Origin: Thermoplasmatota archaeon
GTDB taxonomy: Archaea > Thermoplasmatota > E2 > UBA202 > JdFR-43
Reading direction: 5' to 3'
NCBI GenBank assembly: GCA_038818725.1
Contig: JAWAYL010000003.1
Coordinates: 1,791-65,790 of the forward strand
Length of the DNA: 64,000 nucleotides
Numbering within the stretch: the stretch's first letter is position 1; every line of letters starts with the position of its first letter. Below are positions 7,574 through 62,523 of the stretch, piece by piece. The position numbers were made by a program, and so were the translations under genes. The notes under the pieces were generated by a model that worked only from the letters and a program-made list of their open reading frames with translations, did no database searches and was not told the DNA's origin.

Positions 7574-8343
7574 TATCCTATATACCTCAAATCCTCTCTT
7601 TCGCCCTTTTCTTTTTCAATTATCGACCTTTCAATGCTCTTTATTCTTTCAGTAATTTTTCTAAGCTCTTCTGCTTTCCTATCCAAGCTTGAGAGGCTTA
7701 TTTTCAGTCCAAGAATTTTTGTAAGCACATTTGCAACCTCTCTTGCAGAATTCGGATCAACAATATATCCAGAGGTTTCGCCCATAAGGCAAGCTCCTCT
7801 CATTCCACGCAATTTCCCAAGCCCCAGAAGCAATCCGGAAGCACCAACTATGCCCCCTCCTTCCTCATCCTTAAATATCACTCCATGCTTTTTAAGTTCT
7901 TCAACAAGTTCCTTGTCTGTGGCTGCGCCCGTGACGCGAGGACGCTCTACTTCTATGCCCAGCCCGTAGCCGCCGAGAGTGAAAATCATTTTAACTCCAA
8001 AAGCTTCGGCCAAATCAAGTATTTTTTCCGCAAGCATATATTGGCCATGAGGGGAAAGAGCCTGGTAATCGCCAGTAAGGATGATTAAATCTTTTTCTCC
8101 TTTCCAGTAGAAGAATTCATTTTTTACAAGCCTTACTACTCCATCTGACCCAATTATAACCTGGGGTGGGAAATCTGTAGAGTATAGCTCAGCAAATTTC
8201 TTTGCCTTTATTTCCTCTATAATATGCTCAGCTGCTATTTTTCCAACATTTCCTATACCAGGTAGCCCTTCAATTAATATTGGCTCTTTAAGCTGGGGTT
8301 TTTCCAGATACACTATTTTTATTTCCTCAATTTTTTTTGCCAT
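7573..8343 (-). CDS. PAC2-family protein (archaeal proteasome assembly chaperone-like)
   Basis: LPGIGNVG motif near N-terminus; about 255 aa. Its stop overlaps the start of the upstream ATPase by 1 nt. Confidence 0.6.
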   Translation of the reverse strand: MAKKIEEIKIVYLEKPQLKEPILIEGLPGIGNVGKIAAEHIIEEIKAKKFAELYSTDFPPQVIIGSDGVVRLVKNEFFYWKGEKDLIILTGDYQALSPHGQYMLAEKILDLAEAFGVKMIFTLGGYGLGIEVERPRVTGAATDKELVEELKKHGVIFKDEEGGGIVGASGLLLGLGKLRGMRGACLMGETSGYIVDPNSAREVANVLTKILGLKISLSSLDRKAEELRKITERIKSIERSIIEKEKGEREDLRYIG

Positions 8344-17044: not shown

Positions 17045-18127
17045 ATGGATTTATTTGACGAATTAAAAAAAGCAAAAGAGAAGGACGCAAAATTTAAAAA
17101 TATAATGGGCTCGATGTGCACTTTGCCTCATAAGTTTGCAAAGAAAGCATTTCAGATGTTTATTGAAACAAATCTTGGAGATTACGAGCTTTTTTCTGGA
17201 ACAAAAGAGATTGAGGAAAAAGCAATCAGTTGGGTTGCAAAACTAATGCATGCACCGCCAAGCTATGGAGGAATTTATACTTCAGGCGGAACTGAAAGCA
17301 ATATCACCGCTTTATGGATATTTAAAAAATTGAGCAATGGAAATGAAATAGTTTTGCCAAAGCAGGCTCATTTTTCCTTTATAAAAGCATCAAACTTGCT
17401 TGGATTAAAATTGAGTTTTGTAAATTGCAAATTCTATATGAAAGCAAAGGATGTAAAGAAAAAAATATCTTCAAAAACTACATGTGTTGTTGGAATAGCG
17501 GGAAATACAAATTTTGGATATATAGATGAAATAGAGGAAATAGCAGAAATATGTAGTGAAGAAAATGTTTTCATGCATGTTGATGCAGCATTTGGTGGAT
17601 TTATTGCCCCTTTTGTTAGCGAAAAAAAATTTGATTTCAGAAGCAAAATAAGCAGCATTTGCGTTGATGCCCACAAAATGGGGATGGCATGCATTCCTTG
17701 TGGTTTTCTTTTGTTGAGGGAAAAAAGCTGGCTCGAAGAAATAAAGATAAGGAGCAAATGCACTCATACTCGCTATCAAGCGAGCTTACTCGGCACCCGC
17801 CCTGGCGCAGGTGTAGTTTCTGCATATGCGGTGATGAAATATATTGGGAAAGAGGGTTATAGAAAGGTGGCAAAAGCTTGCATGGAAAATACTTTTTATA
17901 TGGTTGGTTTGCTTGATAAAGCGGGCATAGAATATTTTAAGCCGGAATTGAATATAGTAGCGATAAAAGTAAAGGAGCCATTTAAAGTTGCAAAGAAACT
18001 TGCTAAAAGAGGATGGTTTGTTGGAATAGATGAAGAAAATTCTACAATAAGATGCGTTATTATGCCTCATGTAAGCAAGAGAATGATTAATAAATTTGTT
18101 GAGGATTTAAAAAAGGTGGTAAAATGA
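17045..18127 (+). CDS. mfnA: PLP-dependent L-tyrosine/L-aspartate decarboxylase MfnA
   Basis: Group II decarboxylase; PLP lysine in VDAHKMG. Archaeal MfnA-like N-terminus and length (360 aa). Confidence 0.8.
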   Translation: MDLFDELKKAKEKDAKFKNIMGSMCTLPHKFAKKAFQMFIETNLGDYELFSGTKEIEEKAISWVAKLMHAPPSYGGIYTSGGTESNITALWIFKKLSNGNEIVLPKQAHFSFIKASNLLGLKLSFVNCKFYMKAKDVKKKISSKTTCVVGIAGNTNFGYIDEIEEIAEICSEENVFMHVDAAFGGFIAPFVSEKKFDFRSKISSICVDAHKMGMACIPCGFLLLREKSWLEEIKIRSKCTHTRYQASLLGTRPGAGVVSAYAVMKYIGKEGYRKVAKACMENTFYMVGLLDKAGIEYFKPELNIVAIKVKEPFKVAKKLAKRGWFVGIDEENSTIRCVIMPHVSKRMINKFVEDLKKVVK

Positions 18128-26285: not shown

Positions 26286-26313
26286 TTATTTATACTAAAT
26301 TTATTTTTCTTGT

Positions 26314-26398
26314 GCAGGGGTAGCCAAGCCAGGCCAACGGCGCAGGACTTAAGATCCTGTGGTGAAGTCCTTCGAGGGTTCAAATCCCTCCCCCTGCA
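26314..26398 (+). tRNA. tRNA-Leu (anticodon TAA), intron-less, long variable arm
   Basis: Acceptor GCAGGGG/CCCCTGC plus A73. Anticodon arm CAGGA-CTTAAGA-TCCTG. T-arm GAGGG-TTCAAAT-CCCTC. Confidence 0.85.
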
Positions 26399-26437
26399 TT
26401 TTCGCTAAGTTTTTATATCATTAAAATTTTCTATCCA

Positions 26438-27119: not shown

Positions 27120-30100
27120 ATGAAAGGAAAAGCGAAAATAGCGGTAGGAATTGTGGTGTTATTAGCGATATCTGCGATAAGCTTTGGCATAACAATGCAG
27201 CCACAGCAGAGCAAACCTATAACAAAATTGCAGAAAAAGATAAAAACAACAGATATATCTGGAAATGAAAAAATAGAAAGCTACCTTCTCGACAGCTACA
27301 TAAGGGATGATGGCGAAGAAGCTCTTTTATTTGCTGAAGGAGACGATGCTGGCTATAATGTTGATACAGGAAATGAATTTAAGAGAGCTTTGCCAATCTA
27401 TCCTGGCGAAATTAGGGATTTAGCGCCTGGAAGAAAATTCACTGGACAACTTGATCCAGGAAGGGACAATGAAGACTGGTATTCATTTTCTGTATGTGAA
27501 AAACAAAAGATAAAAGCTACGCTTACCCCCTCTTCAAACTTTGATTTACAGCTTGCAAATCCTAGCGGCTATGTTGTTGCAACTTCAGCAAATGCAGGAA
27601 ATGCTGCGGAAAGCGTTGAATTTACTGCTAACGTGACAGGTTTATGGGCAATTCGCATATATGCAGGGAGCGGAGCAAGCGCTGGCGGCTATACTTTTGA
27701 TGTTAAAATAGAGGGGCAGAACGATGCGGGCACAGGCAAGGATGCTGGAAATAGCATTTCGCAGGCAACAGCAATAACTCCTGGAACATATAATGGATAT
27801 ATGGATATGAATGACTGGGAAGATTGGTATAGCTTTAGTGTTAGTGCTGGGCAGGGAATAAAAGTAGAAATAAAACCAATGCAGAAATCAGATTTTGACA
27901 TACACCTTTATGACCCAACTGGCAAATGGGTTTATAGTGCTCAATATTATGGGAATGATACTCTTGAATATCCAGCAGATAAAAGCGGAACATGGTATAT
28001 AAAAATAGATATGTTCCCAGGATGGGATAAAAGCAAATGGCCAGAAAATTACTTCCTCTATGGCTCTGGAGTATATGAGTTAACATTAACTCTCGGTGTA
28101 TCAGCTGCGCAGCCACCAGGCCCAATTCCACAGCGTGAAATAATTCCTGTTGCACAGACATTTATTGTAAATGATAATCCAAATAGCAATAGCGATGAAT
28201 ATGCATATATAGCTGCTATACCAGCTGCAAACTATATTAAAGATGGAAAGAGATATGTTTCCCCAATTGTTTATAGAGGAGTAAATAAGCAAACTCATTG
28301 GTTTGGAACAGTTGATGATACAACTCAATATTTGCTTGATGATTGGAATACATATCTTGCAAGGCATGGAATGACAGCAAAAGAATATGTATTGAATGCG
28401 GATCCAGTTAAAGCAGCTGCTGAAATAGCAACTACAAAATGGACAAGTTCAAGCACTGCTGTTGTTACTGTAGATGGTAGCGACTTTAGCGATGAAATTA
28501 ATACAATAGTAGACAAAGATGCAACACTTATAGTTAAAACAAAGCAAATGGTTGCTCCAAAAGGAAGTTCAAAACTTAAAGATTTGGGAGGAAAGCAGGC
28601 ATTGCCAATGTTTTTGGATAAGAGCTGGGGAGCAATGACAGTCTATACACATGGCTCTGATTCGCCAGCAGTAGGAATAATAACTCCAAGATATGAGCCA
28701 GGCACTGAAGAAGATTGGCCTCATCCATATGACGCAAGAGGAGACAATACAAATATATACTTCCCTGTTTCAGTCCCAGGGTTATGGATTCCATATGTTG
28801 GTTCAAACTCCGGCGACTGGACGCTTGAAGTAACTGTTTATAGTGGAGATAGATATACAATTCCAATTTCAACAACAGATTGCAGTATAAAAGTTACTGT
28901 AACAACAGATGAGCCAAGCTATTTAGAAGTATTCCTTATTGATCCTTATGCAAATATAAGAGATCCTTCTGTGCCACACTGGAACGGTGGACCAATAAAT
29001 CCAATTCATGTATGGAATGGCGGTCATTGGGAAGGCATAGGATTTGAGAAATGGCGCAGGTGGGAGCCCACATACAGTAAAGAGCATACTGTTGAAGCTC
29101 ATTATCCAATGACAGGAAAATGGACCGCAATTGTTGCTCCTCACTATCCATATGGACAGGAAAAGACAAGCGACTCAATACCATATCATATAAAAATAGA
29201 GGTGAGGCAGCATAATCCAAAGAGAGTTAATGCTGGCTTGTCTGCTGCAAATGCTGCTGTAATTGCTTCATTGAAACATGCTCCATTGCTTTATGTAAAA
29301 GAGGATAGCATACCTCCTGAAACAACAAACGCATTGACAAAGCTTGGAGTATCAAACATAATATTTGTAAATATTGGAAAAGTCAGCTCTGTAAGCTTGC
29401 CAGGAAGTGTTACAGAATATAAGACAATGGCAGAAGTAGTTGATGCAATAAAGAAAGATCCAAAATCAGAAAATTTCATAACAATTACTTCATTTGGCAC
29501 ATTAAATGGCTATTTTGCTCCTGCAGCAATGATTGCAGCATATCATGGTTCACCTGTTTTGAGCATTGGCGAAGCAGCTGAGGCATATGATATACTTGAT
29601 AAAGCAACAACATGGCGCACATATGGTGGAGGATGGTATCACGGATGCAGAGCTCAGGGGCATTTGCCATCAATGAGTGAGCCATTTGACTGGATAGATT
29701 TCTTAAAGGATTTACTTGGAGGAAATATACCAAGCCCAGGCTTTGATTTAGAAAAAAGATGGTTTACCGCAATACATGATGGAATACATAACCTTACACT
29801 TAAATACAATCTTGATTTGCCAGGAAAGGAAGCTTATTTATTTGTTGCAGATAGAGAGGATGATATTCGCCATCTTGCAATACTTGCAATGACAGGAAAT
29901 AATTCCTATGCAGGACAAATAATATTTGACACGCCTGCAATGCAAACCGCGCTGGTATGCAGAGATATATTATATCCAGCAATAATTTATGCAAACCCAG
30001 GAAGGAATGTAACAACTTCTCAGCTGATGAACTTCCCAGATGGAAATACATGGCGCACAAATGATGGAAAATCATATTCAGTATTTTCAAGCCGTGAATT

Positions 30101-30806
30101 AAAGGCGTCATTCAGCTCACATGGAAGATTTTATGAAGGACATTGCATATGGGAAAATCTACTTAAGAGATATAATACAGGAGTAAGCATTAGCTATTAT
30201 TCCGGTCATGGAACAGGAGGAAGCGGAATTTCCGCACAGCCACGCAACTGGGCTGAAGATTTCCCACAAGCAGAGCCGAGATATGAACATTTGCATGATT
30301 TCACATGGTGGGATGGATGGCGAGGATATATGTATGATGACACTCAAACAAAAGATCCAAGATGGGGTGGATTTACATGGTATAATCCAAAAGAACCAAA
30401 TCTATATGACATAATTCACTTCAAGTGGGTTGATCAGCTATTCCAGAATTTGCACAGCGAAATAGAATTATGGATGTCATGCACAACTGGACAGCATTTT
30501 GGTCCAGACATATATCTTGAGCATGGAGCAGCACTTTGGTATGGAAATGCGGGCACAGGACTATGCCCACAGGAAGATTTGCTCGATGATTGGTGGATAC
30601 ATGATTTCCTAGTTGAAGGAAAATCAATAGGAGAAGCATTATCAACATACATATATTTGCATCAGCGCGACTATACAACAGGCGATGATTTTGCAATGTA
30701 TGGTCCATCATCAATGCAGGTTACAAATGTTCAAGTGATCTTTGGAGATCCAACACTTATATGCTATAGCCCAGAATGGGTTGAGCCAACACCAGTAGCA
30801 CCATAA
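27120..30806 (+). CDS. Large secreted protein: two PPC (pre-peptidase C-terminal) domains plus a divergent C25/gingipain-like His-Cys peptidase region
   Basis: GGAGG RBS and signal anchor MKGKAKIAVGIVVLLAISAISFG. PPC signatures EDWYSFSV...FDLQLANPSG and EDWYSFSV...FDIHLYDPTG. Candidate dyad SYYSGHGTGGSG / LWMSCTTGQ. Confidence 0.7.
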   Translation: MKGKAKIAVGIVVLLAISAISFGITMQPQQSKPITKLQKKIKTTDISGNEKIESYLLDSYIRDDGEEALLFAEGDDAGYNVDTGNEFKRALPIYPGEIRDLAPGRKFTGQLDPGRDNEDWYSFSVCEKQKIKATLTPSSNFDLQLANPSGYVVATSANAGNAAESVEFTANVTGLWAIRIYAGSGASAGGYTFDVKIEGQNDAGTGKDAGNSISQATAITPGTYNGYMDMNDWEDWYSFSVSAGQGIKVEIKPMQKSDFDIHLYDPTGKWVYSAQYYGNDTLEYPADKSGTWYIKIDMFPGWDKSKWPENYFLYGSGVYELTLTLGVSAAQPPGPIPQREIIPVAQTFIVNDNPNSNSDEYAYIAAIPAANYIKDGKRYVSPIVYRGVNKQTHWFGTVDDTTQYLLDDWNTYLARHGMTAKEYVLNADPVKAAAEIATTKWTSSSTAVVTVDGSDFSDEINTIVDKDATLIVKTKQMVAPKGSSKLKDLGGKQALPMFLDKSWGAMTVYTHGSDSPAVGIITPRYEPGTEEDWPHPYDARGDNTNIYFPVSVPGLWIPYVGSNSGDWTLEVTVYSGDRYTIPISTTDCSIKVTVTTDEPSYLEVFLIDPYANIRDPSVPHWNGGPINPIHVWNGGHWEGIGFEKWRRWEPTYSKEHTVEAHYPMTGKWTAIVAPHYPYGQEKTSDSIPYHIKIEVRQHNPKRVNAGLSAANAAVIASLKHAPLLYVKEDSIPPETTNALTKLGVSNIIFVNIGKVSSVSLPGSVTEYKTMAEVVDAIKKDPKSENFITITSFGTLNGYFAPAAMIAAYHGSPVLSIGEAAEAYDILDKATTWRTYGGGWYHGCRAQGHLPSMSEPFDWIDFLKDLLGGNIPSPGFDLEKRWFTAIHDGIHNLTLKYNLDLPGKEAYLFVADREDDIRHLAILAMTGNNSYAGQIIFDTPAMQTALVCRDILYPAIIYANPGRNVTTSQLMNFPDGNTWRTNDGKSYSVFSSRELKASFSSHGRFYEGHCIWENLLKRYNTGVSISYYSGHGTGGSGISAQPRNWAEDFPQAEPRYEHLHDFTWWDGWRGYMYDDTQTKDPRWGGFTWYNPKEPNLYDIIHFKWVDQLFQNLHSEIELWMSCTTGQHFGPDIYLEHGAALWYGNAGTGLCPQEDLLDDWWIHDFLVEGKSIGEALSTYIYLHQRDYTTGDDFAMYGPSSMQVTNVQVIFGDPTLICYSPEWVEPTPVAP

Positions 30807-35056: not shown

Positions 35057-35174
35057 GCGGGCGTGATCTAGCTGGTTAGGATATGAGCCTTCCAAGCTCA
35101 ATGCCCGGGTTCGAACTGCAACTTGTCACAAGTTGCTTATTAAAGCAAGTTGCTTGAAAATCCCGGCGCCCGCA
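35057..35174 (+). tRNA. tRNA-Gly (anticodon TCC) with a 45-nt intron in the T-loop (35116-35160, about position 59/60)
   Basis: Acceptor GCGGGCG/CGCCCGC plus A73. Anticodon arm TGAGC-CTTCCAA-GCTCA. T-stem CCGGG...CCCGG interrupted after TTCGAA by CTGCAACTTGTCACAAGTTGCTTATTAAAGCAAGTTGCTTGAAAA. Confidence 0.75.
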
Positions 35175-35858: not shown

Positions 35859-37328
35859 TTGTATTTCATTTCAATGAAATTTGATTTGAAATGCAGCATT
35901 ACTACAAGCAAGGAAATAAAAAAAGAAGAGCTTGCTCATTTTTTCAATAACCTTACAATTGATGCAAAAATGGAATGGGATGCAAAAGAAAATAAAATTT
36001 TTTTAAGAATAATTTCTGAAAAAAGGAGAAGTCATGAGTGGGCTTTAAGAATAGTAAAAAAGCTTGAAGAATTTCTTGGAAAAATGAAAATTGGAATAAG
36101 GGATTTGCATCTTGACAGATATGAAATTGATTTTGAATTAGATAAGGAGCCATTAAAAAGTGTATCAATTCCATTTGCTGAAGTTGAAATAAAAGATAAG
36201 AAAGTAAAATTAATTATTTCTGATAAAGGAGAGGAATTTTTAAGGGAAAACTATGCTGATAGAATAATAAAAAGAATAAAAGAAAAAATAGATGCTCAAT
36301 ATTATGAAGGCAAAAAAGAATACTGGCATTTAGTCTGGCAAAGTGAGGAAAAAAAGGAAGCATGGAATAAAGATCCTTCTGAGGAAATGCTCAATTTGGG
36401 ATGGATAAAGTTGATGGGCAAAGGCAAATGGTTTTATTTCCCGCCAGCCGCAGCCATCATGCGGGCGATGGAAAGAATTGCAATAAATGAAGTAATTGCT
36501 CCCATTGGCTTTTCAGAGATAATTCAGCCAATGCATGTCTCATTTGATACTTGGCTTAAAACCGGGCATCTTGAAGGAATGCCAGGAGAAATTTATTATA
36601 TATGCGAGCCGAAGAGCAGGGAAGCGAGGGAATGGGAAAATTTTGTTGATTTAATTAAAATAAAAAGAGAAGTAAGCGATGAAGAGCTAATTAAAAATTT
36701 AAAGCCGCCAAAAGAAGGAGTTTGCTATGCCCAATGTCCAAATATCTATGCTTCTTTTGCTGGAAAGACAATTGCTGAAGAAAGTTTACCATTGCTTATA
36801 TTTGATCATTCCACTCCTTCAGATAGATATGAAGCAGGGGGCAAGCATGGTATTGAAAGAGTTGATGAATTTCATAGAATAGAAATTGTATATATTGGAA
36901 CAAAAGAACAACTTATAGAAGTAAGAGAAAAACTTATGGAGAGGTATAGATATGTGTTTGACAAAATACTTGATTTGGAATGGAGAATGGCAAAAGTAAC
37001 CCCTTTTTATTTACAGCAGGCTGGCATAACCGCTAGCGAGGAAGATGAAATAAAAGGAACAATAGATTTCGAGGCATATTTGCCTTATAGAGGGGATAGA
37101 AGCAAAGAATGGCTTGAAATACAGAATATTTCAATAGTTGGAGATAAATATGTAAAAGCATTTAATATAAAGGCCCAGAAAAGTGAGTTATGGAGTGGTT
37201 GCTCAGGAATTGGCTTAGAAAGATGGACAGTTGCATTTCTTGCTCAAAAAGGGATAGAGCCAGAAAAATGGCCGCAAGGTTTTAGAAGATATTTGCCAAA
37301 TTTACCAAAAATGCCAAAATTTTTGTAG
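35859..37328 (+). CDS. Class II aminoacyl-tRNA synthetase-like protein, resembling the atypical methanogen-type seryl-tRNA synthetase (or an amino acid:carrier-protein ligase homolog)
   Basis: Motif-3-like SGCSGIGLERWTVAFL near the C-terminus, with Cys adjacent as in the Zn-dependent mSerRS. Motif-2-like EPKSREAREWENF. About 489 aa with a charged N-terminal domain. Confidence 0.5.
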   Translation: MYFISMKFDLKCSITTSKEIKKEELAHFFNNLTIDAKMEWDAKENKIFLRIISEKRRSHEWALRIVKKLEEFLGKMKIGIRDLHLDRYEIDFELDKEPLKSVSIPFAEVEIKDKKVKLIISDKGEEFLRENYADRIIKRIKEKIDAQYYEGKKEYWHLVWQSEEKKEAWNKDPSEEMLNLGWIKLMGKGKWFYFPPAAAIMRAMERIAINEVIAPIGFSEIIQPMHVSFDTWLKTGHLEGMPGEIYYICEPKSREAREWENFVDLIKIKREVSDEELIKNLKPPKEGVCYAQCPNIYASFAGKTIAEESLPLLIFDHSTPSDRYEAGGKHGIERVDEFHRIEIVYIGTKEQLIEVREKLMERYRYVFDKILDLEWRMAKVTPFYLQQAGITASEEDEIKGTIDFEAYLPYRGDRSKEWLEIQNISIVGDKYVKAFNIKAQKSELWSGCSGIGLERWTVAFLAQKGIEPEKWPQGFRRYLPNLPKMPKFL

Positions 37329-42997: not shown

Positions 42998-43113
42998 GGC
43001 CCGGGCCGGGATTTTCAAGCAACTTGCTTTAATGCGCAACTTGCACAAGTTGCAGTTTGAACCCGGGTCAAGGGATCCACAGTCCCTTATGTTACCGCTA
43101 CACCACCCAGGCC
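42998..43113 (-). tRNA. tRNA-His (anticodon GTG, encoded G-1) with a 44-nt T-loop intron (plus-strand 43012-43055)
   Basis: Reverse complement reads G-GCCTGGG...AGGGA-CTGTGGA-TCCCT...CCGGG-TTCAAA-[CTGCAACTTGTGCAAGTTGCGCATTAAAGCAAGTTGCTTGAAAA]-T-CCCGG-CCCGGGC-C. Confidence 0.75.
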
Positions 43114-49585: not shown

Positions 49586-51448
49586 TTAAGGATATCCTCC
49601 TATTTTTAAGCTTGGGTCGCCTAGCAATACCCATTCCTCAACTGTTTTACAATCAATCACATCTTTCATTGGGTCGCGAACCGCTATATAGTCAATTATT
49701 GCAGTTCCCCATGCTTCACCGAGCATATCTTTTCCTTTAGCTCCGTATGCACGGAAAAATCTCTCTTCTATGAATCCGCCAAAGTATTCAACTTCGTCCG
49801 GCACACCATTTTTGTTGTCATCATATCCACCTCCATGCCCATAGCCCAAGCCAGTGTTTCCAAAAGTGGCTATTGCTCCTTTATTTGCCATCTTCACTAA
49901 ATGCCAGCTAAAGCATTCATATGTTGGCTGATATGTCCATGGATTTTGCAGATCATCAAGCAAGCTTATATTAAATTCGCTGTTATGGCATCCTCCTATA
50001 ACTACAATTGGCTGCTTTTCTCCATTGCTAAGTAAATCCATATTGTAGGTCATCAATCCATTTACCCATGGTCCTTCTCCATTTTTGAAATGAGTTGCCC
50101 ATGCAGTTGGACTTCCATGTCCATCCATCGCAACAAAACCAAAGCCATTGCTCCAAGTTTTTATTACATTTATCCATGCAAATCTGCCAGCAAGAGGAGC
50201 AGGTTCAACATGTCCATATGTAAGGGTTCCATCAGATACATATAAACTTGTTTTAACAAACTTGCTCGCCATATAGTTATTATAGAACCAAGAAGTAGAA
50301 ACTTCTCCTTCAAAAACATCATTTCCTCCAAAAGTATCTCCTCCAATTAAAAGCATCTTTTTAAACCATTCTTTGCCATATGCATTGTTTTCATAATTAA
50401 CTATTTTATCAATCACATTCTGCAATTCCTTCAAGCTTTGACAAGCAAGTCTACCAACATATACATCTGGAGCTAAATCCAGCTTATCTTTTCCATATTT
50501 AAATGACCAAGCTCCAAAAACACCATCTCCATTTGTATCCCATGAAGAGAATGAGCCATCCGCATTATATATATCTGCAAAATATAAATCGCTTAAATAT
50601 CCAAATTCTTCCCGATCATCAAGAGCAGCATATCTTACAGGACAGTACCATAGAGCATCGTTGCTTGTTGTGGCTCCGTCCATCCCCCAGTTGCCGGTGA
50701 GATATGATCTTTTACCACCTACAAGCATAACATATTTTATTCCATATTTTTCGAGCACATCTTTTATGAAATACTTCACTTTTTCTGCACCATCCCTTCC
50801 TTCATAATTTGAATAAATGTTTTCAACCTTCTCAGAAATTACTCTTAAACCTTTTTCCTCTTTGTGTTGAATCAACCTTGCTATTTCATTTTCCCATTCT
50901 GAAGGATATATTATTAGCAAATCTTTTTCACTTTCACTCACCCCTTTATTTGGCAAATCGTGTGTAATTTTAATTTCAAAATCATTTGCTATTTCAACCA
51001 TATTCTCTTTTGCAATGTACCTCACTGGATATAAATGAATTGCAACAATCGTAGATAGCTTGCCTTCATAAAGCCCACCATATTCATTAATGGTATACCA
51101 TTCCTGTGGATATATTTCATATGCTTCACCATCCCCTTCATATTTTATATTTGTTCCATATGCGACCGCAGGCGGAGCGACAATTATGCTTGCTTTCTTC
51201 TTTTCTATTCCTTTTGGATTGCACTCTATGCTAACCTTTGTTCCAAGAGGAAACACATATGTTTTTACATAATAGGGCAACATTGGTTTTCCTGGAGATG
51301 AAGTATAGTAAGCATCGCTGTATTTTCCCCCATATATTTCCGCATATTCAATTTCTTCAAAATTTTTTGTGCTTTTTCTGTTATCCAAGCTTACAGCACT
51401 TAAAACAAGCATCATTAAAACTATTCCTGCTATACCTACTTTCCTCAT
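49586..51448 (-). CDS. Secreted peptidase C25 (gingipain-like) family protein
   Basis: Signal peptide. YVMLVGG, DVYVGRL, MDGHGSPTAW (His) and VVIGGCHNSEF (Cys), closely resembling the gingipain catalytic motifs. Confidence 0.8.
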   Translation of the reverse strand: MRKVGIAGIVLMMLVLSAVSLDNRKSTKNFEEIEYAEIYGGKYSDAYYTSSPGKPMLPYYVKTYVFPLGTKVSIECNPKGIEKKKASIIVAPPAVAYGTNIKYEGDGEAYEIYPQEWYTINEYGGLYEGKLSTIVAIHLYPVRYIAKENMVEIANDFEIKITHDLPNKGVSESEKDLLIIYPSEWENEIARLIQHKEEKGLRVISEKVENIYSNYEGRDGAEKVKYFIKDVLEKYGIKYVMLVGGKRSYLTGNWGMDGATTSNDALWYCPVRYAALDDREEFGYLSDLYFADIYNADGSFSSWDTNGDGVFGAWSFKYGKDKLDLAPDVYVGRLACQSLKELQNVIDKIVNYENNAYGKEWFKKMLLIGGDTFGGNDVFEGEVSTSWFYNNYMASKFVKTSLYVSDGTLTYGHVEPAPLAGRFAWINVIKTWSNGFGFVAMDGHGSPTAWATHFKNGEGPWVNGLMTYNMDLLSNGEKQPIVVIGGCHNSEFNISLLDDLQNPWTYQPTYECFSWHLVKMANKGAIATFGNTGLGYGHGGGYDDNKNGVPDEVEYFGGFIEERFFRAYGAKGKDMLGEAWGTAIIDYIAVRDPMKDVIDCKTVEEWVLLGDPSLKIGGYP

Positions 51449-52309: not shown

Positions 52310-52762
52310 ATGGAGAGAACTTTTTTAATGATAAAGCCAGATGGGGTGCAAAGAAGATTAGTAGGTAAAATTTTGCAGAGAATAGAAGAGTGTGGTTTCA
52401 AAATAGTTGCAATGAAATTATTGAAAATATCTCGGGAGATGGCTGAAAAGCATTATTCAATACATAAAGGAAAGGATTTCTTTGAAGGATTGATAAATTA
52501 TATAACCAGCGGACCAGTTGTTGCAATGGTTGTTGAGGGAAAAGATGCGATAGAAAGATTAAGAAAAATTGTTGGTTCAACAAATCCAAAAGATGCGATG
52601 CCTGGAACAATAAGAGGAGATTTTGCCCAAGATATAGGAAGAAATATAATACATGCAAGTGATAGCAAAGAAACAGCGGATAAGGAAATAAAACTTTGGT
52701 TCAGCAAAGATGAAATAGTTGATTATATAATGGATGATGAAAAATGGCTTTTTGAGGATTAA
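52310..52762 (+). CDS. ndk: Nucleoside diphosphate kinase
   Basis: ERTFLMIKPDGVQRRLVGKI..., active-site NIIHASD; 150 aa. Confidence 0.9.
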   Translation: MERTFLMIKPDGVQRRLVGKILQRIEECGFKIVAMKLLKISREMAEKHYSIHKGKDFFEGLINYITSGPVVAMVVEGKDAIERLRKIVGSTNPKDAMPGTIRGDFAQDIGRNIIHASDSKETADKEIKLWFSKDEIVDYIMDDEKWLFED

Positions 52763-52848
52763 ATTTATATATTTTGCTAATAATATATTTTAGCTCCATC
52801 TCGAAGGCCTCTATGATAAATGAATAGAGGAGCAAACGTGGAGCAACA

Positions 52849-52906
52849 GCGGCATCACGGGCCCCTGCGCGATTAGTGAGCGTAAGGTCAACCCAGGTGC
52901 CGCACA
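52849..52906 (+). ncRNA. Candidate single-hairpin H/ACA-like guide sRNA (speculative)
   Basis: 69% GC island in a ~33% GC genome. Closing stem GCGGCA...UGCCGC is followed immediately by ACA. Internal GCGC-GA-UUAGU-GA-GCG resembles a K-turn/K-loop cap. Overlaps the last codons of panE. Confidence 0.3.
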
Positions 52907-53787
52907 CTCTCATTTGCTTTTATTAAGGCATATATAGTTTCATTTATACACGCATTTATTCCATGTTTTTTTGCTCTCCTTATTATTTCTCCAATTATCT
53001 CATCTACTTCTGTTTTCTTTCCAGAAATTATATCTTGGAGCATTGAAGAAATGTTTTCTGATGTATTTATTGCAACTTCCTGCGCTTTTTTTATTATTTC
53101 CTCGTCTATTTCAATTCCCTCTGCTTTTGCAACTTCAATTCCTTCCATGCAAATTTTTTCCATTAAATATTTTGTATATTCATTTCTAACCAATTCCCCA
53201 TTTTTACATCTTAAAATAGATGTTAAGCCATTAATTGCTGAATTTACTATTGCCTTCTTCCATTTTTCTTTTTTAATTTGGTTGCTTATTTTTGTTTCAA
53301 TTCCACATTCATTAAATGCTTCGCAAATCTTTTTTATCCTTTCACTAATTTCTCCGTTCATCTCTCCTATTATCGTTTCTCCCCTGCCGGCATGATATAT
53401 TTTTCCATTTTCGAGAAATATTACTCCATGAGTAGTTGTTGCTCCAATAACATTTTCAACGCCAATTTTTTCCGCTATAATTTCCTCATTTCTTAATCCA
53501 TTCTGAATTGAAATAACAGGAATTTTTCCAAATTTTCCTAAAATTTCATCTATTGCAAGCTTTGTATCATATGCTTTTGTTGCAAGAATAACAAAATCAT
53601 ATTTGCTTCCATCCCATCTTGTTTTAGGATAAAAAATCCCTTCAGTAACCCCTTCTATTTTCAATCCCTTTTTTTCTATTTCCTCGATATGCTTTTTTCT
53701 CCCAACAAGCAAAACATCATTCTTTCTTGAAAGAAGCCCGCCAAACAATGAGCCGATTGCTCCCGCTCCAAATATTATGAATTTCAT
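52888..53787 (-). CDS. panE: 2-dehydropantoate 2-reductase (ketopantoate reductase, PanE/ApbA)
   Basis: MKFIIFGAGAIGSLFGGLL Rossmann N-terminus, KPR-like length and C-terminal helical domain. Confidence 0.75.
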   Translation of the reverse strand: MKFIIFGAGAIGSLFGGLLSRKNDVLLVGRKKHIEEIEKKGLKIEGVTEGIFYPKTRWDGSKYDFVILATKAYDTKLAIDEILGKFGKIPVISIQNGLRNEEIIAEKIGVENVIGATTTHGVIFLENGKIYHAGRGETIIGEMNGEISERIKKICEAFNECGIETKISNQIKKEKWKKAIVNSAINGLTSILRCKNGELVRNEYTKYLMEKICMEGIEVAKAEGIEIDEEIIKKAQEVAINTSENISSMLQDIISGKKTEVDEIIGEIIRRAKKHGINACINETIYALIKANESVRHLG

Positions 53788-53891: not shown

Positions 53892-54008
53892 AGCGGGCGT
53901 AGTGTAGTCTGGTATCACATAGCCCTGCCACGGCTATAACCCGGGTTCGAACTGCAACTTGTGCAAGTTGCGCATTAAAGCAAGTTGCTTGAAAATCCCG
54001 GCGCCCGC
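53892..54008 (+). tRNA. tRNA-Gly (anticodon GCC) with a 44-nt T-loop intron (53951-53994) identical to the tRNA-His intron
   Basis: Acceptor GCGGGCG/CGCCCGC plus A73. Anticodon arm TAGCC-CTGCCAC-GGCTA. T-stem CCGGG-TTCGAA-[intron]-T-CCCGG. Confidence 0.75.
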
Positions 54009-54011
54009 ATC

Positions 54012-57357: not shown

Positions 57358-60300
57358 GTGATTGAAATGGCAGCATATAAAAAAATGGGTATAATTTTTT
57401 TAAGTATATTGATGCTAACATCGACTTTTCCAGTTTATAGCGGCTCTAGCCGAGGTGAAAACCTGGAAAATAGTGAAACACTTCTGTATAAAATAAATTT
57501 TCCAGAGCCATCCCTTAAAGAAATTGAGGTGAATGGAAAAGAGTTTACTATAGTAGAGATACCTGATTGTATTAATACCGGCAAAAGTGGAGCCCCCTCC
57601 TTGCCTGTGTATGGTGTGCAGATTCTTCTTCCTTATGGAAGTGAATTAGAAGAAGTAAAAGTAAAAGGTGAAAAAACCGCGATATCAACAAATCTTAGGG
57701 GGAAACCAGTATTTCCATACCAAGAGCCTGTGCCCATTGGATATAAGGGAAAGGAATTTTTCATTGATGAAAATGCTTATAAAATTGAAAAATATCCTGA
57801 AAAAATTTACGATGTTATAGGAGTTGGATATTGTAGAGGATATGCAATACTTGCAATGAATTTATTCCCTGTAGAGTATTATCCCGTAGAAGGGGAGTTA
57901 TTTTACTATCCATTAATTGAAATAGAATTAAAATTAAATAAGAACGGTTATGTAAATGAGTTTTACAGAAATAATCCGAATGATAGAAGTTATGTTGCTT
58001 CTCTTGTAATTAACCCAGAGATATTAGATTCTTATAAAGTAAAAAGCGTATTTGAATATCCTGGAGGAATTTGCGATCCTTCACAAAATTATGACTATGT
58101 AATAATCACCAGACAGGCACTTGCAAACTTCTCCGGAAATTATACCTGGGCACATTTCATCGCAAGGAAGCAGGCGGAAGGAATTCAGGCAATAGTAGTT
58201 ACAGTAGAAGATATTGTAGCATGCCAAGCTTATTGGAACACAACTCCTATTTTTAATGATACCCCAGCAAAAATAAGGGAATTTTTGAGAGATGCTTATA
58301 TTGACTGGGGGATTGAATATGTTCTTATTGCTGGAGATAATGATGGAAGTGCTATGGTTCAAAGAAGATTGCTTCACTATGGAACAGGAGCATATGCAGA
58401 AAATGTTGACTCAGATTTATATTGGAGCAACCTTGATAATACATTCAATAGTGATATGGATAGTCAGTGGGGAGAATCAGATGATTCAGGATTCGATTTG
58501 TATTCAGAACTATTTATAGGAAGTATACCATGCGATACTGGAACAGATATTTCAAACTGGCTCACAAAAAGCTTTTATTATGCAGACTCAATGGAAAAGG
58601 ATTATCTTGAAAATGTTGGATTTTATGGAGGAGATACAGGATGGGCATGCCAAGGAGATGACTTTATGGATTTCACGTTGTATGGCACAAATAATTGGCT
58701 GGGTCCGGATCCAAATTATGATGGTCCGTGGCCAAGCTGGCTTGGCTTCCTCTATGGTTTCGACACATGGAATTTATCAAATCCAGGAATGGAATTCAAT
58801 ACAAGCGTTAGATGGACTGCTGAGCCGCCGAATCAAGGATGGCAAGGTGGCTCTGAATCTGCTGCAATTGCTGGTTTGAGAAATGCAATAAATAATAATC
58901 TCTGTGCAATTATAAATGGTATAGCCCATGCTAACGAGCATATGTCTCTGGATGTATATGATACAGAATGGGAGTCACAATATTTCAATACAAAACCATT
59001 TTTCATACATGATTACGGATGTCATTGTGGAGATATGGATGCAACAGATGATGGTGTGCTTCATTCAATGCTTTTCCATTCAAATATAGAGCTTGCTTTT
59101 GCATGCGTTTATAATACAGGATATGGATGGGGAAATTATTATTCAACAAATTCAAGTAGTGCATTGCAACAAAAATTATTCTGGGATTACATGCTCAATA
59201 CAAGCAAGTGTGGCGGAGTAATAAACTGGCGCCTTGGAAAAGCGCAAGCCTATTCAAAAGATGCAATGGCTCCTACTATAAATTGGGATCCTGGATATGA
59301 GACCTGGCGAGGAATTATCGAAAGCTGTCTGCTGTTTGGTGATCCTCATCAATTAATCAAGCCGCCAGAACTTCCAGAGCATAATGTAGGGGTTGTCTCC
59401 CTTAAAGTAGATGACCATGTTTTACCTGGTGAGCAGGTTTATATAAATGCAACTATAATAAATAGTGGCTTGAACAATGAAACAAATGTTATTGTAAGAT
59501 GTCGTATAAATGAAACAGAGATAGGAAATATAACAATTCCATTTTTCCAAAGCCAAACAATGCAAGAAGTAAGCTTTTTATGGATTCCAGCAATGGGATG
59601 GTATAATGTTGTTATAAACGTAACTATTCCAGGGGTAGAAGAAAATATCACTGTAGATAATGAAAAGAGCAAAGTTGTTGTTGCTGGGCCTGATGTCGCA
59701 GTTTCTTCAATAGATACACCTGTTTTTGCATCGGTTGGTACTATTACTGAAATAAAAGCTACTTTAAGCAATTTGGGAAAAGAGGATGAAATAGTCACCG
59801 TAAAAATAGTTGTAAACAATGTAACAGTAGATAATATTTCATTGATTTTGCAAGGGAGAAGGACAGAGAATATTTCATTGTTATGGAATCCTACCTATGA
59901 AGGATTTTATCCTGTAAAAATAGAAGTATTATGCGCAAATGATGTATATCCTGAAAATAACTTCAGAAGCAATAATGTAAATGTTGTAACTGCTTTAGGA
60001 TATGTTCTTCTTGTGGATGATGATAAAGGAGACAATTATGAAATTTATTACGAAAATGCATTGATGGCAGCTGGTTATGTTTATACTCTATGGAATAGGG
60101 ATGCGCAAGGAGTACCATCTCCTTCTTATATGGCAACATTTACAGCGGTTGTATGGTTTACTGGAGACGATTATACAACAACATTAACAGCCGAAGATAT
60201 AAATGCCCTTACAACTTATCTAAACAATGGAGGTAAATTGTTTATAACAGGCCAAGATATAGGTTTTGATATAAATACGGATCCTTTCTATAGCAATTAT

Positions 60301-62523
60301 CTACATGCTCAATATCTTGTAGATGATACAAATATTTATATCCTGAATGGGATAGCTGGTGACCCGATCGGAAATAATTTAACCATAGGCATCTCAAGTG
60401 GTGACGGGGCAAACAATCAGAATTGGCCATCTGGAATAAATCCGATAGGAGGAGCTACGCCGGTATTTCAATATTCTGGCTCATCTTATTATGGAGGAAT
60501 AAAATACGCTGGAACATATAAAGTAGTTTATTTCTCATTTGGTTTTGAAGCAATTAATAGTATGGCTCATAGAACAGAAGTTATGAGCAGAATAATGAAC
60601 TGGTTTGGGGGAGGAGGAAATGTATCAGATATTTATATAAATCCGTTGAATCTTGCATATGTAGTTGGAAGAGGAGAAATAATACATGAAAATATCGTGA
60701 TCGGAAATTCAATAAATGCAACAAGGAATCTGACATTTTCAATATCCTTACCACATGGCTTTATATTGCAATGGACTCATCAGCACGGCGGCGACGGCCA
60801 CTCAGAACTCGCCCAACCAGTAGGAGATATAGACGAAGATGGAATAAATGAATTTATTATTGGAGGATATGGAAGTGGAGGAACTTATATCTTTTCATAT
60901 GATTCATATAGTAAAACATATGTGCAAGAACATTTCTGGACACATGCTGGTGGCTCCTATAATGTGCCTTCTGGAGCTTGTGTTGTTGATTTAGATGATA
61001 ATGGTGACCTTGAGTTTGTGGTTTCGTGGGAATATAGTGGAGCAAATGGAATTCATGCTTATGATTGGAATGGAACAACGCTTACGGAGCTTGCGTGGTA
61101 TACAGGCACAGGATACGAGTTTGCATATGATGTTTATGCGTGTGATTATGACGACGATGGAGATGTTGAAGTGCTAATTGCAAATAGACCATCTTCTTCC
61201 ACTGGCTATCATGTTACTGCTTTAAGATGGAATAATACAACAAATCAATTTGAGAGAGAAATTTCATGGGGCAGTGGTCAAGCAACAGAATGTCCAATGG
61301 TATGGAGTGGAGATACTGATGGAGACGGAAAAACTGAAGTTATTGCAAGTGCTGGTACAAATACTGTATATGCTTTAAATTATCAGAACGGGAGTTGGCT
61401 GGCTACTATAGTTGCAAGTGGTCTGCCAGCTCATCCGTACGGTGTGGCATGCGGTGATTTAGATAGTGATGGGATAGATGAAATTGCTTTCGGATTAGAT
61501 GGAACACAGGCTTATATATACAAATGGAATGCAACATCTTCATCTTATCAACAGGTCTGGTACTATAATTATGCAGGAGAAAGTGATATTATAGAAGGAG
61601 TTGCAATTGGAGATGTAGATAATGATGGGCTAAAAGAAGTGGTTATTGGTCCAACTTATTTACACATTGTTAAATGGAATGGAACAGCATACAAAGAAGT
61701 TGCTACAATAACTGAAACCCAAGGAATGCTCGCTGGAGTAAATGTTGGAGATTTTGACAGCGATGGGAAAAATGAAATTAAAGCTTGTGACATTTTATCA
61801 GATGTGGGTAAGGAATGGATATTTGAGTATATAGAAGAGCCAAATTGGATTTTAATAAATCCAACGAATGGAACACTTCAGCCTGGACAAGAAATAAATA
61901 TATCTCTAACTATCAATACAGCAAATCTTGAGAATTTAACAAAAATTTATTTGCAGATAAATACAAATGATCCAGATGAAGCTATAATCCGCCTACCACT
62001 CTATATTTCTGTATTAAATGAAATAACCCATAACTTCTCCTTAGTTAATCCTTGGAACTTAATTACAATTCCAGTTTTAGCAAATTTAACTGCAAAAAGC
62101 TTAATTGAAAATATCTCAGCTTGTAATGTTGTTGTAAGATGGGATCCAATAAATCAAAGCTATAAAATATATACAGCAGGAATGCCAGAGCAATATAATT
62201 TTGCTTTAATTCCAGGAAATGGCTATTTTGTTGGATTAAATAATCAAGCAAATTACTCAATTACAGGAATGCCAATAAGTAGTGTAGAAGTAAATTTAAG
62301 TGTTGGATGGAATATGATAGGATGGTTTAAAGATTCAACAAATGCAAAGAGCTTAATGCAAAATATAACATCATGCAATATTGTATGCAAATGGGATGCA
62401 ATAAATCAGAAATATAAAGTATATGTGCAGGGAATGCCAGATTCATATAACTTTGCTATAAACAGAGGAGATGGAGTATTTGTAAGCGTTACTCAGCCAA
62501 GCATATGGCATGGAGAGGGATAA
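57358..62523 (+). CDS. Giant (1721 aa) secreted multidomain protein with many domains (listed in evidence)
   Basis: Domains: C25-like peptidase region, two CARDB-like domains, an alpha/beta module, seven FG-GAP/VCBS repeats, and two novel C-terminal tandem repeats. Signal peptide MAAYKKMGIIFLSILMLTSTFPVYSG. Candidate His AHANEHM and Cys DYGCHCGD. FG-GAP motifs GDIDEDGINE, VDLDDNGDLE, CDYDDDGDVE, GDTDGDGKTE, GDLDSDGIDE, GDVDNDGLKE, GDFDSDGKNE. Confidence 0.8.
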   Translation: MIEMAAYKKMGIIFLSILMLTSTFPVYSGSSRGENLENSETLLYKINFPEPSLKEIEVNGKEFTIVEIPDCINTGKSGAPSLPVYGVQILLPYGSELEEVKVKGEKTAISTNLRGKPVFPYQEPVPIGYKGKEFFIDENAYKIEKYPEKIYDVIGVGYCRGYAILAMNLFPVEYYPVEGELFYYPLIEIELKLNKNGYVNEFYRNNPNDRSYVASLVINPEILDSYKVKSVFEYPGGICDPSQNYDYVIITRQALANFSGNYTWAHFIARKQAEGIQAIVVTVEDIVACQAYWNTTPIFNDTPAKIREFLRDAYIDWGIEYVLIAGDNDGSAMVQRRLLHYGTGAYAENVDSDLYWSNLDNTFNSDMDSQWGESDDSGFDLYSELFIGSIPCDTGTDISNWLTKSFYYADSMEKDYLENVGFYGGDTGWACQGDDFMDFTLYGTNNWLGPDPNYDGPWPSWLGFLYGFDTWNLSNPGMEFNTSVRWTAEPPNQGWQGGSESAAIAGLRNAINNNLCAIINGIAHANEHMSLDVYDTEWESQYFNTKPFFIHDYGCHCGDMDATDDGVLHSMLFHSNIELAFACVYNTGYGWGNYYSTNSSSALQQKLFWDYMLNTSKCGGVINWRLGKAQAYSKDAMAPTINWDPGYETWRGIIESCLLFGDPHQLIKPPELPEHNVGVVSLKVDDHVLPGEQVYINATIINSGLNNETNVIVRCRINETEIGNITIPFFQSQTMQEVSFLWIPAMGWYNVVINVTIPGVEENITVDNEKSKVVVAGPDVAVSSIDTPVFASVGTITEIKATLSNLGKEDEIVTVKIVVNNVTVDNISLILQGRRTENISLLWNPTYEGFYPVKIEVLCANDVYPENNFRSNNVNVVTALGYVLLVDDDKGDNYEIYYENALMAAGYVYTLWNRDAQGVPSPSYMATFTAVVWFTGDDYTTTLTAEDINALTTYLNNGGKLFITGQDIGFDINTDPFYSNYLHAQYLVDDTNIYILNGIAGDPIGNNLTIGISSGDGANNQNWPSGINPIGGATPVFQYSGSSYYGGIKYAGTYKVVYFSFGFEAINSMAHRTEVMSRIMNWFGGGGNVSDIYINPLNLAYVVGRGEIIHENIVIGNSINATRNLTFSISLPHGFILQWTHQHGGDGHSELAQPVGDIDEDGINEFIIGGYGSGGTYIFSYDSYSKTYVQEHFWTHAGGSYNVPSGACVVDLDDNGDLEFVVSWEYSGANGIHAYDWNGTTLTELAWYTGTGYEFAYDVYACDYDDDGDVEVLIANRPSSSTGYHVTALRWNNTTNQFEREISWGSGQATECPMVWSGDTDGDGKTEVIASAGTNTVYALNYQNGSWLATIVASGLPAHPYGVACGDLDSDGIDEIAFGLDGTQAYIYKWNATSSSYQQVWYYNYAGESDIIEGVAIGDVDNDGLKEVVIGPTYLHIVKWNGTAYKEVATITETQGMLAGVNVGDFDSDGKNEIKACDILSDVGKEWIFEYIEEPNWILINPTNGTLQPGQEINISLTINTANLENLTKIYLQINTNDPDEAIIRLPLYISVLNEITHNFSLVNPWNLITIPVLANLTAKSLIENISACNVVVRWDPINQSYKIYTAGMPEQYNFALIPGNGYFVGLNNQANYSITGMPISSVEVNLSVGWNMIGWFKDSTNAKSLMQNITSCNIVCKWDAINQKYKVYVQGMPDSYNFAINRGDGVFVSVTQPSIWHGEG

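Follow-up and report, generated by a model that had tools for sequence, protein, structure and literature searches.

The tRNA-His(GTG) gene of this chromosome is split within its T-loop by a 44-nt insert, and the same insert is present in a gene for another tRNA. This raises the question whether such a gene can still give a functional tRNA, and how one insert came to reside in tRNA genes of different identity. We addressed it in the window, the whole 64-kb stretch of DNA that was analysed, and in related loci, genomes and metagenomes. Three genes of the window carry the insert. They are very probably functional archaeal tRNA genes with a bulge-helix-bulge (BHB) intron between tRNA positions 59 and 60, and the intron appears to be a portable cassette that has recently been copied between genes and has also been precisely lost.

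Results and discussion

Intron-bearing tRNA genes

The extent of these genes was not obvious from automatic annotation. ARAGORN placed a tRNA-His at 43042-43112 on the minus strand, which ends inside the intron, and missed both tRNA-Gly genes. The Rfam tRNA model matched only the 5′ part of tRNA-His (43060-43112) and gave the tRNA-Gly genes 24.1 and 21.8 bits, where 29 is the threshold. In genomes of this clade, automatic annotation will under-count the tRNA genes, and quality scoring will rate these genomes as tRNA-deficient.

The tRNA-His(GTG) gene occupies positions 42998-43113 on the minus strand, with G(-1) at 43113, G1 at 43112 and the discriminator C73 at 42998. Read on that strand, the anticodon GTG is followed by the T-stem strand CCGGG, TTCAAA, the 44-nt insert, T60, CCCGG, CCCGGGC and the final C, base for base as the preliminary description had it. 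The 5′ exon (43056-43113) and the 3′ exon (42998-43011) enclose the intron, which runs from 43055 down to 43012, between tRNA positions 59 and 60. It belongs to what we call the long form and has the layout CT-GCAACTTG-TG-CAAGTTGC-GCATTAAAG-CAAGTTGC-T-TGAA-AA. Helix h′ of the predicted splicing motif is provided by a 5′ arm at 43046-43053 and by two copies of the 3′ arm, a proximal one at 43036-43043 and a distal one at 43019-43026. The TGAA at 43014-43017 is the predicted partner of T-loop positions 54-57, and the AA at 43012-43013 forms the 3′ bulge together with T60.

The tRNA-Gly(GCC) gene lies on the plus strand at 53893-54009, with the 5′ exon at 53893-53951, the intron at 53952-53995 and the 3′ exon at 53996-54009. 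The tRNA-Gly(TCC) gene, also on the plus strand, extends from 35057 to 35174 and contains a 45-nt intron (35116-35160) between a 5′ exon at 35057-35115 and a 3′ exon at 35161-35174. The sole other tRNA gene in the window, tRNA-Leu(TAA) (26313-26399, plus strand), has no intron and a different T-stem and was used as an internal comparator. A near-identical T-loop intron of 44-45 nt is therefore found in three of the four tRNA genes by which the host genome is sampled in the 64-kb window.

The introns of tRNA-His and tRNA-Gly(GCC) are identical at 44 of 44 positions, in agreement with the identity claimed beforehand. The exact 44-mer occurs twice in the window, at 43012-43055 on the minus strand and at 53952-53995 on the plus strand, with none expected according to 100 shuffles. 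The third copy, at 35116-35160, was located by a gapped pattern search of the window. It matches the other two at 41 of 45 positions (91.1% over 45 columns), the differences being three substitutions and a 1-nt indel; the indel had been noted correctly, and the earlier figure of about four substituted positions was slightly high. All three host genes have the T-arm CCGGG-TTCRAAT-CCCGG in common, as had been stated for the T-stem halves, and are identical over 9 nt on the 5′ side and 7 nt on the 3′ side of the intron.

Removal of the insert from the sequence yields a perfect tRNA-His(gtg), tRNA-Gly(gcc) and tRNA-Gly(tcc) in ARAGORN, each with the correct anticodon, and tRNA-His keeps G(-1). The boundary of the insert is ambiguous at the DNA level because an A-run is present at both junctions. 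It can be drawn anywhere from 56/57 to 59/60 in the His gene and from 57/58 to 59/60 in both Gly genes. The assignment to 59/60 is based on the geometry of the splicing motif.

Predicted splicing motif

The T-arm and intron of 16 family members were folded. In most of them the minimum free energy (MFE) structure consists of the T-stem, a 3-nt bulge, a short helix, a second 3-nt bulge and the intron hairpin. The short helix is built from T-loop positions 54-57 (or 54-58) and the YGAA at the 3′ end of the intron, and the 3′ bulge from the last two intron bases and U60. One register is valid in 16 of 16 sequences. It has a 4-bp central helix between positions 54-57 and i-6 to i-3 and the bulges A58-A59|i1 and i-2,i-1|U60, and cuts in these bulges would leave the normal mature loop UUCRAAU. 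Since both 3-nt bulges and the 4-bp helix can form in all 16, the motif does not belong to the relaxed types hBH, HBh′ or BHL, in which a loop takes the place of one bulge or the bulge is lacking. Fold and covariation agree on the hBHBh′ arrangement, with two 3-nt bulges, a 4-bp helix between them and flanking helices. The insert and the T-arm are thus predicted to form a near-canonical BHB motif.

Covariation was assessed in an alignment of eight short-form introns. Three of these, from the related contigs L017, L020 and L141, had been found by gene order and not by sequence pattern, and are therefore unbiased. The structure named above is 95.9% paired, with the T-stem, the central helix and the hairpin each at 100%. 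Six pairs have changed on both sides, and the observed values were reached by none of 500 shuffles; controls in which the pairing was slid were less than 50% paired. The exon-intron pair 57:-6 is A-U in seven sequences and G-C in one, and compensatory changes in the hairpin lead from U-A to C-G and from C-G to U-A. The covariation of the intron with its paired exon base argues for selection at the RNA level.

The motif is not textbook-strict on its 5′ side, because at the first pair of helix h′, i2:i-7, most copies have a U-U, U-C or C-C mismatch, and 25% of the alignment cells are paired. In L141 and L009 it is A-U, and the motif there is fully strict. The unconstrained MFE often favours a 5-bp central helix in which A58 pairs with U-7, and this would misplace the 5′ cut. 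The 5-bp register was rejected. It needs the A58:U(-7) pair and therefore fails where position -7 is C or G, as in L003, L007, L010 and L017, and the T-loop that it leaves would be 8 nt long.

According to this model, the intron would bring its own 8-bp hairpin, GCAACTTG against CAAGTTGC, as the outer helix h′, and the T-stem of the tRNA would serve as the other outer helix. The YGAA at the 3′ end of the intron would pair with the near-universal T-loop bases U54-U55-C56-R57 to give the 4-bp central helix. By analogy with the established archaeal pathway, the splicing endonuclease EndA would then be expected to cut each bulge behind its second base, that is between A59 and i1 and between i(-1) and U60. 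The ligase RtcB would presumably rejoin the exons to a normal 7-nt T-loop with the junction ...GGTTCAAA|TCCCGG.... As almost every tRNA has GTTCRAAT next to a T-stem of whatever sequence, such a cassette could be spliced from any tRNA when placed at 59/60. This portability would explain the occurrence of one intron family in at least nine different tRNA species.

Other functions of the insert were considered. A self-splicing group I intron, which would be a ribozyme longer than 200 nt and located in the anticodon loop, was rejected for an insert of 44-45 nt in the T-loop with no match to a group I model. At the intron coordinates no Rfam match was obtained even at E values up to 10, except for that of the tRNA model to the exons. 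A guide RNA or another known RNA function of the intron was dismissed on the same search, and C/D-box motifs are not visible.

Presence and absence of the intron at orthologous loci

The tRNA-Gly(GCC) gene of the window is located between the genes for PanE and EamA and has the 44-nt intron. In the closest relative (L013, JACIWA010000001.1), whose aIF2-gamma is 92% identical, the orthologous gene at 8236-8308 lies between the same two genes and has no intron. The exons of the two genes are 100% identical, and 42 of 43 positions match in the upstream flank.

The tRNA-His gene adjoins the iPGM gene, and the exons and flanks of its orthologues align throughout. The intron, 44 nt long in the window, is absent from L019 (iPGM identity of 88%) and from L144 (70%). 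It is present with 29 nt and one G-U pair in the hairpin in L017/L018 (86%), with 24 nt, a shortened hairpin and a strict BHB in L141 (85%), and with 29 nt and a compensatory C-G pair in L020 (76%). Judged from these alignments, the His intron is old in this clade and evolves fast by substitutions and indels under structural constraint. It has been lost precisely at least once, in L019, because the more distant L017, L141 and L020 keep it.

The tRNA-Gly(GCC) intron of the window is 44/44 identical to that of tRNA-His in the same genome, and the closest relative has none. The simplest reading is therefore that the Gly(GCC) intron of the window arose as a recent copy between His and Gly(GCC), after the long form had come into being. 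The proposal of a recent intron spread among tRNA genes, made in the preliminary description, gains support from this intron-less orthologue and from the BHB with its covariation.

The tRNA content of the PurN locus has been rearranged between close relatives. Beside PurN, L017 has intron-less genes for tRNA-Gly(CCC) and tRNA-Pro(GGG) at 17290-17472, and the window has the intron-bearing tRNA-Gly(TCC) gene (35057-35174) there.

Distribution and forms of the intron family

A collection of GTDB genomes with one genome per species was scanned with a pattern of three 8-mers, which required neither tRNA context nor position. Three matches were obtained, in tRNA-Gln(CTG), tRNA-Ser(CGA) and tRNA-Val(GAC). 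All three come from Thermoplasmata metagenome-assembled genomes (MAGs) of hydrothermal sediments and all are at 59/60. A metagenome scan, whose pattern required T-loop flanks, returned seven contigs with introns in tRNAs for Val, His, Cys (twice), Ser, Thr and Lys. In total, 19 of 19 recovered copies are located at 59/60; this position was required by the metagenome pattern and by our own scan, but not by the GTDB pattern. Near-identical introns are thus shared by tRNAs of different identity, namely His, Gly(GCC) and Gly(TCC), with homologues in Cys, Thr, Lys, Gln, Ser and Val. Related introns at several tRNA positions, as in the Thermoproteales, are not seen among the 19 copies. Conservation of the hairpin sequence is partly an effect of ascertainment, because, apart from those at the orthologous His loci, most homologues came from searches with patterns that required the hairpin sequence.

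A blastn-short search of the window and of approximately 250 kb of related loci revealed no convincing copy outside tRNA T-loops. The remaining matches are 9-12 nt long and at chance level, with E values of 0.49 or more. Two apparent extra copies, in L004 and L012, were inspected and proved to be chance matches inside coding sequence. A viral origin was also rejected. The bare palindrome gave at least 120 matches in IMG/VR, none of them with T-loop context, and these are regarded as chance palindromes.

The basic short form of the intron has 29-30 nt and the layout NN-GCAACTTG-loop-CAAGTTGC-NY-GAAAA. The 44-45-nt form of the window differs from it by a second CAAGTTGC arm after a 9-nt spacer. 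Long forms are also found in other Thermoplasmata contigs, at 2315-2360 in L003, 5307-5356 in L004, 539-580 in L006 and, on the minus strand, at 61-110 in L009 and 5055-5096 in L005. In these the loop and the 3′ arm are duplicated as well, and the spacers are unrelated. A 12-nt CAGGCAAGTTGC unit is visibly repeated in L003. From their sequences, the long forms look like products of repeated tandem duplication of the loop and the 3′ arm, and such duplication within the intron seems to recur. The MFE structure of the long forms pairs the distal 3′ arm and keeps the BHB. The proximal arm has decayed in L006, which indicates that it is not required.

Origin of the shared intron

We propose that a very recent copying event between tRNA-His and tRNA-Gly(GCC) transferred the long form, with its tandem-duplicated loop and 3′ arm, and that tRNA-Gly(TCC) was the donor or the recipient in a somewhat earlier one. 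The preliminary description had offered gene conversion of tRNA 3′ halves as one route, and in that wording it is not supported. The acceptor 3′ strand is gene-specific, being CCCGGGC in His and CGCCCGC in Gly, and so is exon position 57, 2 nt from the intron, which is A in His and G in Gly. As each gene keeps its own acceptor strand and its own base 57, transfer of a whole 3′ half is excluded. A DNA conversion tract would have to begin within 2 nt of the intron on its 5′ side. Short-tract recombination of DNA through the shared T-arm may still account for the copying, and a very short conversion tract confined to that arm is conceivable. Alternatively, the excised intron might be inserted into another pre-tRNA by reverse splicing, followed by formation of a cDNA and its recombination into the gene. 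This RNA-mediated route is speculative; by its nature it would not alter the exons. A reverse transcriptase was not found in the window. Precise loss might proceed independently of RNA by slipped-strand deletion, as the intron is a near-palindrome between A-run direct repeats.

The same data can be read in another way, in which the introns are old in all three genes and have been homogenised by gene conversion, the intron-less Gly(GCC) gene of the relative being the result of a precise loss. This is the most serious competitor, though we consider it improbable. Precise losses do happen, as the His gene of L019 illustrates, the placement of the palindromic intron between direct repeats would favour them, and the T-arm shared by the three host genes could seed conversion. 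On the other hand, homogenisation needs more events, namely that Gly(GCC) gained the intron long ago, that the relative lost it and that only then conversion took place. Furthermore, exon base 57 was not co-converted in spite of its distance of 2 nt, and the neighbouring tRNA-Gly(CCC) gene of the relative has the same T-arm and no intron. Far less probable is a miniature mobile element of DNA, MITE- or PATE-like and moved for example by an IS200/IS605-type transposase, that lands 3′ of TTCRAA and is tolerated in T-loops. It would be in keeping with a hairpin-forming near-palindrome, with near-identical copies and with precise insertion lacking a duplication beyond the ambiguous A-run. It does not fit the covariation of the intron with the paired exon base, the placement at 59/60 of all three matches from the context-free GTDB scan, or the viral palindromes devoid of T-loop context. 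No transposase was detected among the 55 open reading frames of the window that were scanned. The generic MITE-like repeat that had been named as a possible refutation is likewise not what was found, as the window, the related loci and the GTDB-wide scan gave no convincing copy outside tRNA T-loops.

Disrupted tRNA pseudogenes, with functional intron-less copies elsewhere in the genome, had been named beforehand as the other possible refutation and are just as improbable an explanation of the three loci as a mobile element. The view of the genome is limited to 64 kb, and the failure of ARAGORN and Rfam to find intact genes would agree with disruption. However, the exons are 100% identical to those of intron-less orthologues in relatives, and the interruption of the His gene has been kept across lineages with compensatory changes that preserve the BHB. 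By eye, A/T-rich TATA-like boxes are seen approximately 25-35 nt upstream of the tRNA genes and T-runs downstream of tRNA-His and tRNA-Gly(GCC). Moreover, one gene for each tRNA species is the usual complement of an archaeal genome. The least credible possibility of all is that the identical copies are an artefact of assembly or binning, a collapsed or chimeric repeat. The window does come from a metagenome-assembled genome, but homologous introns are present in independently assembled relatives, and Logan assemblies of three independent SRA runs (SRR21619491, SRR21619498 and SRR21619492) reproduce the junctions of intron and exon in tRNA-His and tRNA-Gly(GCC). Base 1 of the Logan contigs L001/L002 corresponds to window position 43034 and base 1 of L145 to 53981. 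Each of these starts lies exactly 30 nt before the first base at which His can be told from Gly, or Gly(GCC) from Gly(TCC). Breaks 30 nt into shared sequence are expected of a k=31 graph at a true multi-copy repeat. The shared intron fragments short-read assemblies, and the breaks provide read-level evidence for several copies.

Comparison with known tRNA introns

Introns at 59/60 have been described in pre-tRNA-Cys(GCA) and pre-tRNA-Pro(GGG) of ARMAN-2 (Candidatus Micrarchaeum acidiphilum) (PMC3239211). The introns reported here share with them the T-loop site, the small size, a BHB-type motif built on the T-stem and presumably the removal by EndA. The ARMAN-2 Cys intron forms a relaxed hBH and is associated with a broad-specificity epsilon2 EndA, whereas both bulges and a 4-bp helix are predicted here, which makes the motif near-strict. 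Moreover, the present introns form one sequence family across many tRNAs, and the host belongs to the Thermoplasmatota, a group reported to have narrow alpha′2 EndA only (PMC5829648, PMC6379350).

Similar introns in different tRNAs of the Thermoproteales were read as large-scale transposition (Fujishima et al. 2010, as cited in PMC4033280 and PMC4090602), and the mechanism of tRNA intron transposition was called unknown (PMC4090602). As far as those citing articles relate it, the likeness lies in very similar introns in tRNAs of different identity, which implies copying after speciation. In the Thermoproteales, which are Crenarchaeota with (alpha-beta)2 EndA, the related introns are spread over many canonical and non-canonical positions, and one gene often has several of them. 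In contrast, the family described here uses the single site 59/60 in a euryarchaeal-type lineage, and its gain and loss are documented by orthologous loci with and without the intron and with identical exons. With the canonical introns at 37/38 (hBHBh′) it has in common the outer tRNA helix, the 3-nt bulge, the 4-bp exon-intron helix, the second 3-nt bulge and the hairpin, and in all likelihood the EndA/RtcB chemistry. It differs from them in the use of the T-arm instead of the anticodon arm and in the first pair of the intron helix, which is usually a pyrimidine-pyrimidine mismatch. The BHB tRNA intron as an object and its spread among tRNA genes as a behaviour are known; what is new is that they occur in this lineage and at one target site only, and that presence and absence are documented with unusual clarity. 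Our literature search found no paper joining Thermoplasmatota with tRNA introns or splicing endonuclease, and when Aciduliprofundum was added to the search none was among the matches listed.

No EndA or RtcB domain was found among the 55 open reading frames scanned in the window, and no tRNA-intron-endonuclease domain among the called genes of the relatives' loci. The EndA of Thermoplasma acidophilum is of the narrow-specificity alpha′2 type (PMC6379350), and the 'Cluster II' Euryarchaeota are said to encode alpha′2 EndA exclusively (PMC5829648). The present introns extend the range of spreading non-canonical introns to the Thermoplasmatota, a group described as alpha′2-only in the latter article. 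Either alpha′2 handles a BHB presented by the T-arm or the lineage has a different enzyme.

For the study of archaeal tRNA intron gain this clade offers unusually clean material, with plus and minus alleles of one gene that have identical exons, with two different tRNA genes of one genome whose copies are 100% identical and with graded older copies. A bolder hypothesis, which we put forward tentatively and consider rather doubtful, is that the clade hosts an actively mobile and self-contained T-loop tRNA intron cassette, whose gains and losses occur over the time in which species diverge, in a background where narrow alpha′2 is the only EndA expected. If this were true, archaeal tRNA intron transposition could be caught in the act here, and the clade would serve as a natural system for its study. 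An intron with its own near-strict BHB would then bypass the co-evolution rule, according to which non-canonical introns need a broad-specificity EndA. In a stronger version, a dedicated factor may recognise the conserved GCARC...GTTGC hairpin and mediate insertion.

Host and other features of the window

The host is clearly an archaeon. The window is chromosomal DNA of an uncultured Thermoplasmatota archaeon, with approximately 34% G+C. Its housekeeping genes include those for aIF2 alpha and gamma, L7Ae, S6e, RFC, Trm5, a diphthamide synthesis protein, HMG-CoA reductase and an archaeal prepilin peptidase. Its aIF2-gamma is 100% identical to the protein encoded on a 108-kb contig of an NCBI 'Candidatus Thermoplasmatota archaeon' MAG, and the next matches, with 92% and 80% identity, belong to Thermoplasmatales or Thermoplasmata MAGs.

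Downstream of the L7Ae gene, in the spacer between the NDK and PanE genes, the region 52737-52937 (plus strand) matches the archaeal H/ACA guide RNA family HgcG/Pab40 (RF00064). The score of 55.5 bits is below the gathering score of 77, and the E value on the sub-region is 1.4e-14. ACA boxes and K-turn-like loops are present, and we regard the region as a probable true H/ACA sRNA with several hairpins, belonging to a divergent lineage. The gene at 35859-37328 (plus strand) encodes a seryl-tRNA-synthetase-like protein with an N-terminal tRNA_bind_4 domain (PF18490) and a class II core, which is also encoded in L017. This domain marks the rare 'methanogen-type' SerRS. The window further encodes very large predicted surface or secreted proteins at 27120-30806, 49586-51448 and 57358-62523, and also at 181-2988 and 12606-14897. 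They contain PPC, peptidase C25, CARDB, FG-GAP, PKD and OmpL47-type domains, and the homologue of the last-listed protein in a relative has 3540 aa.
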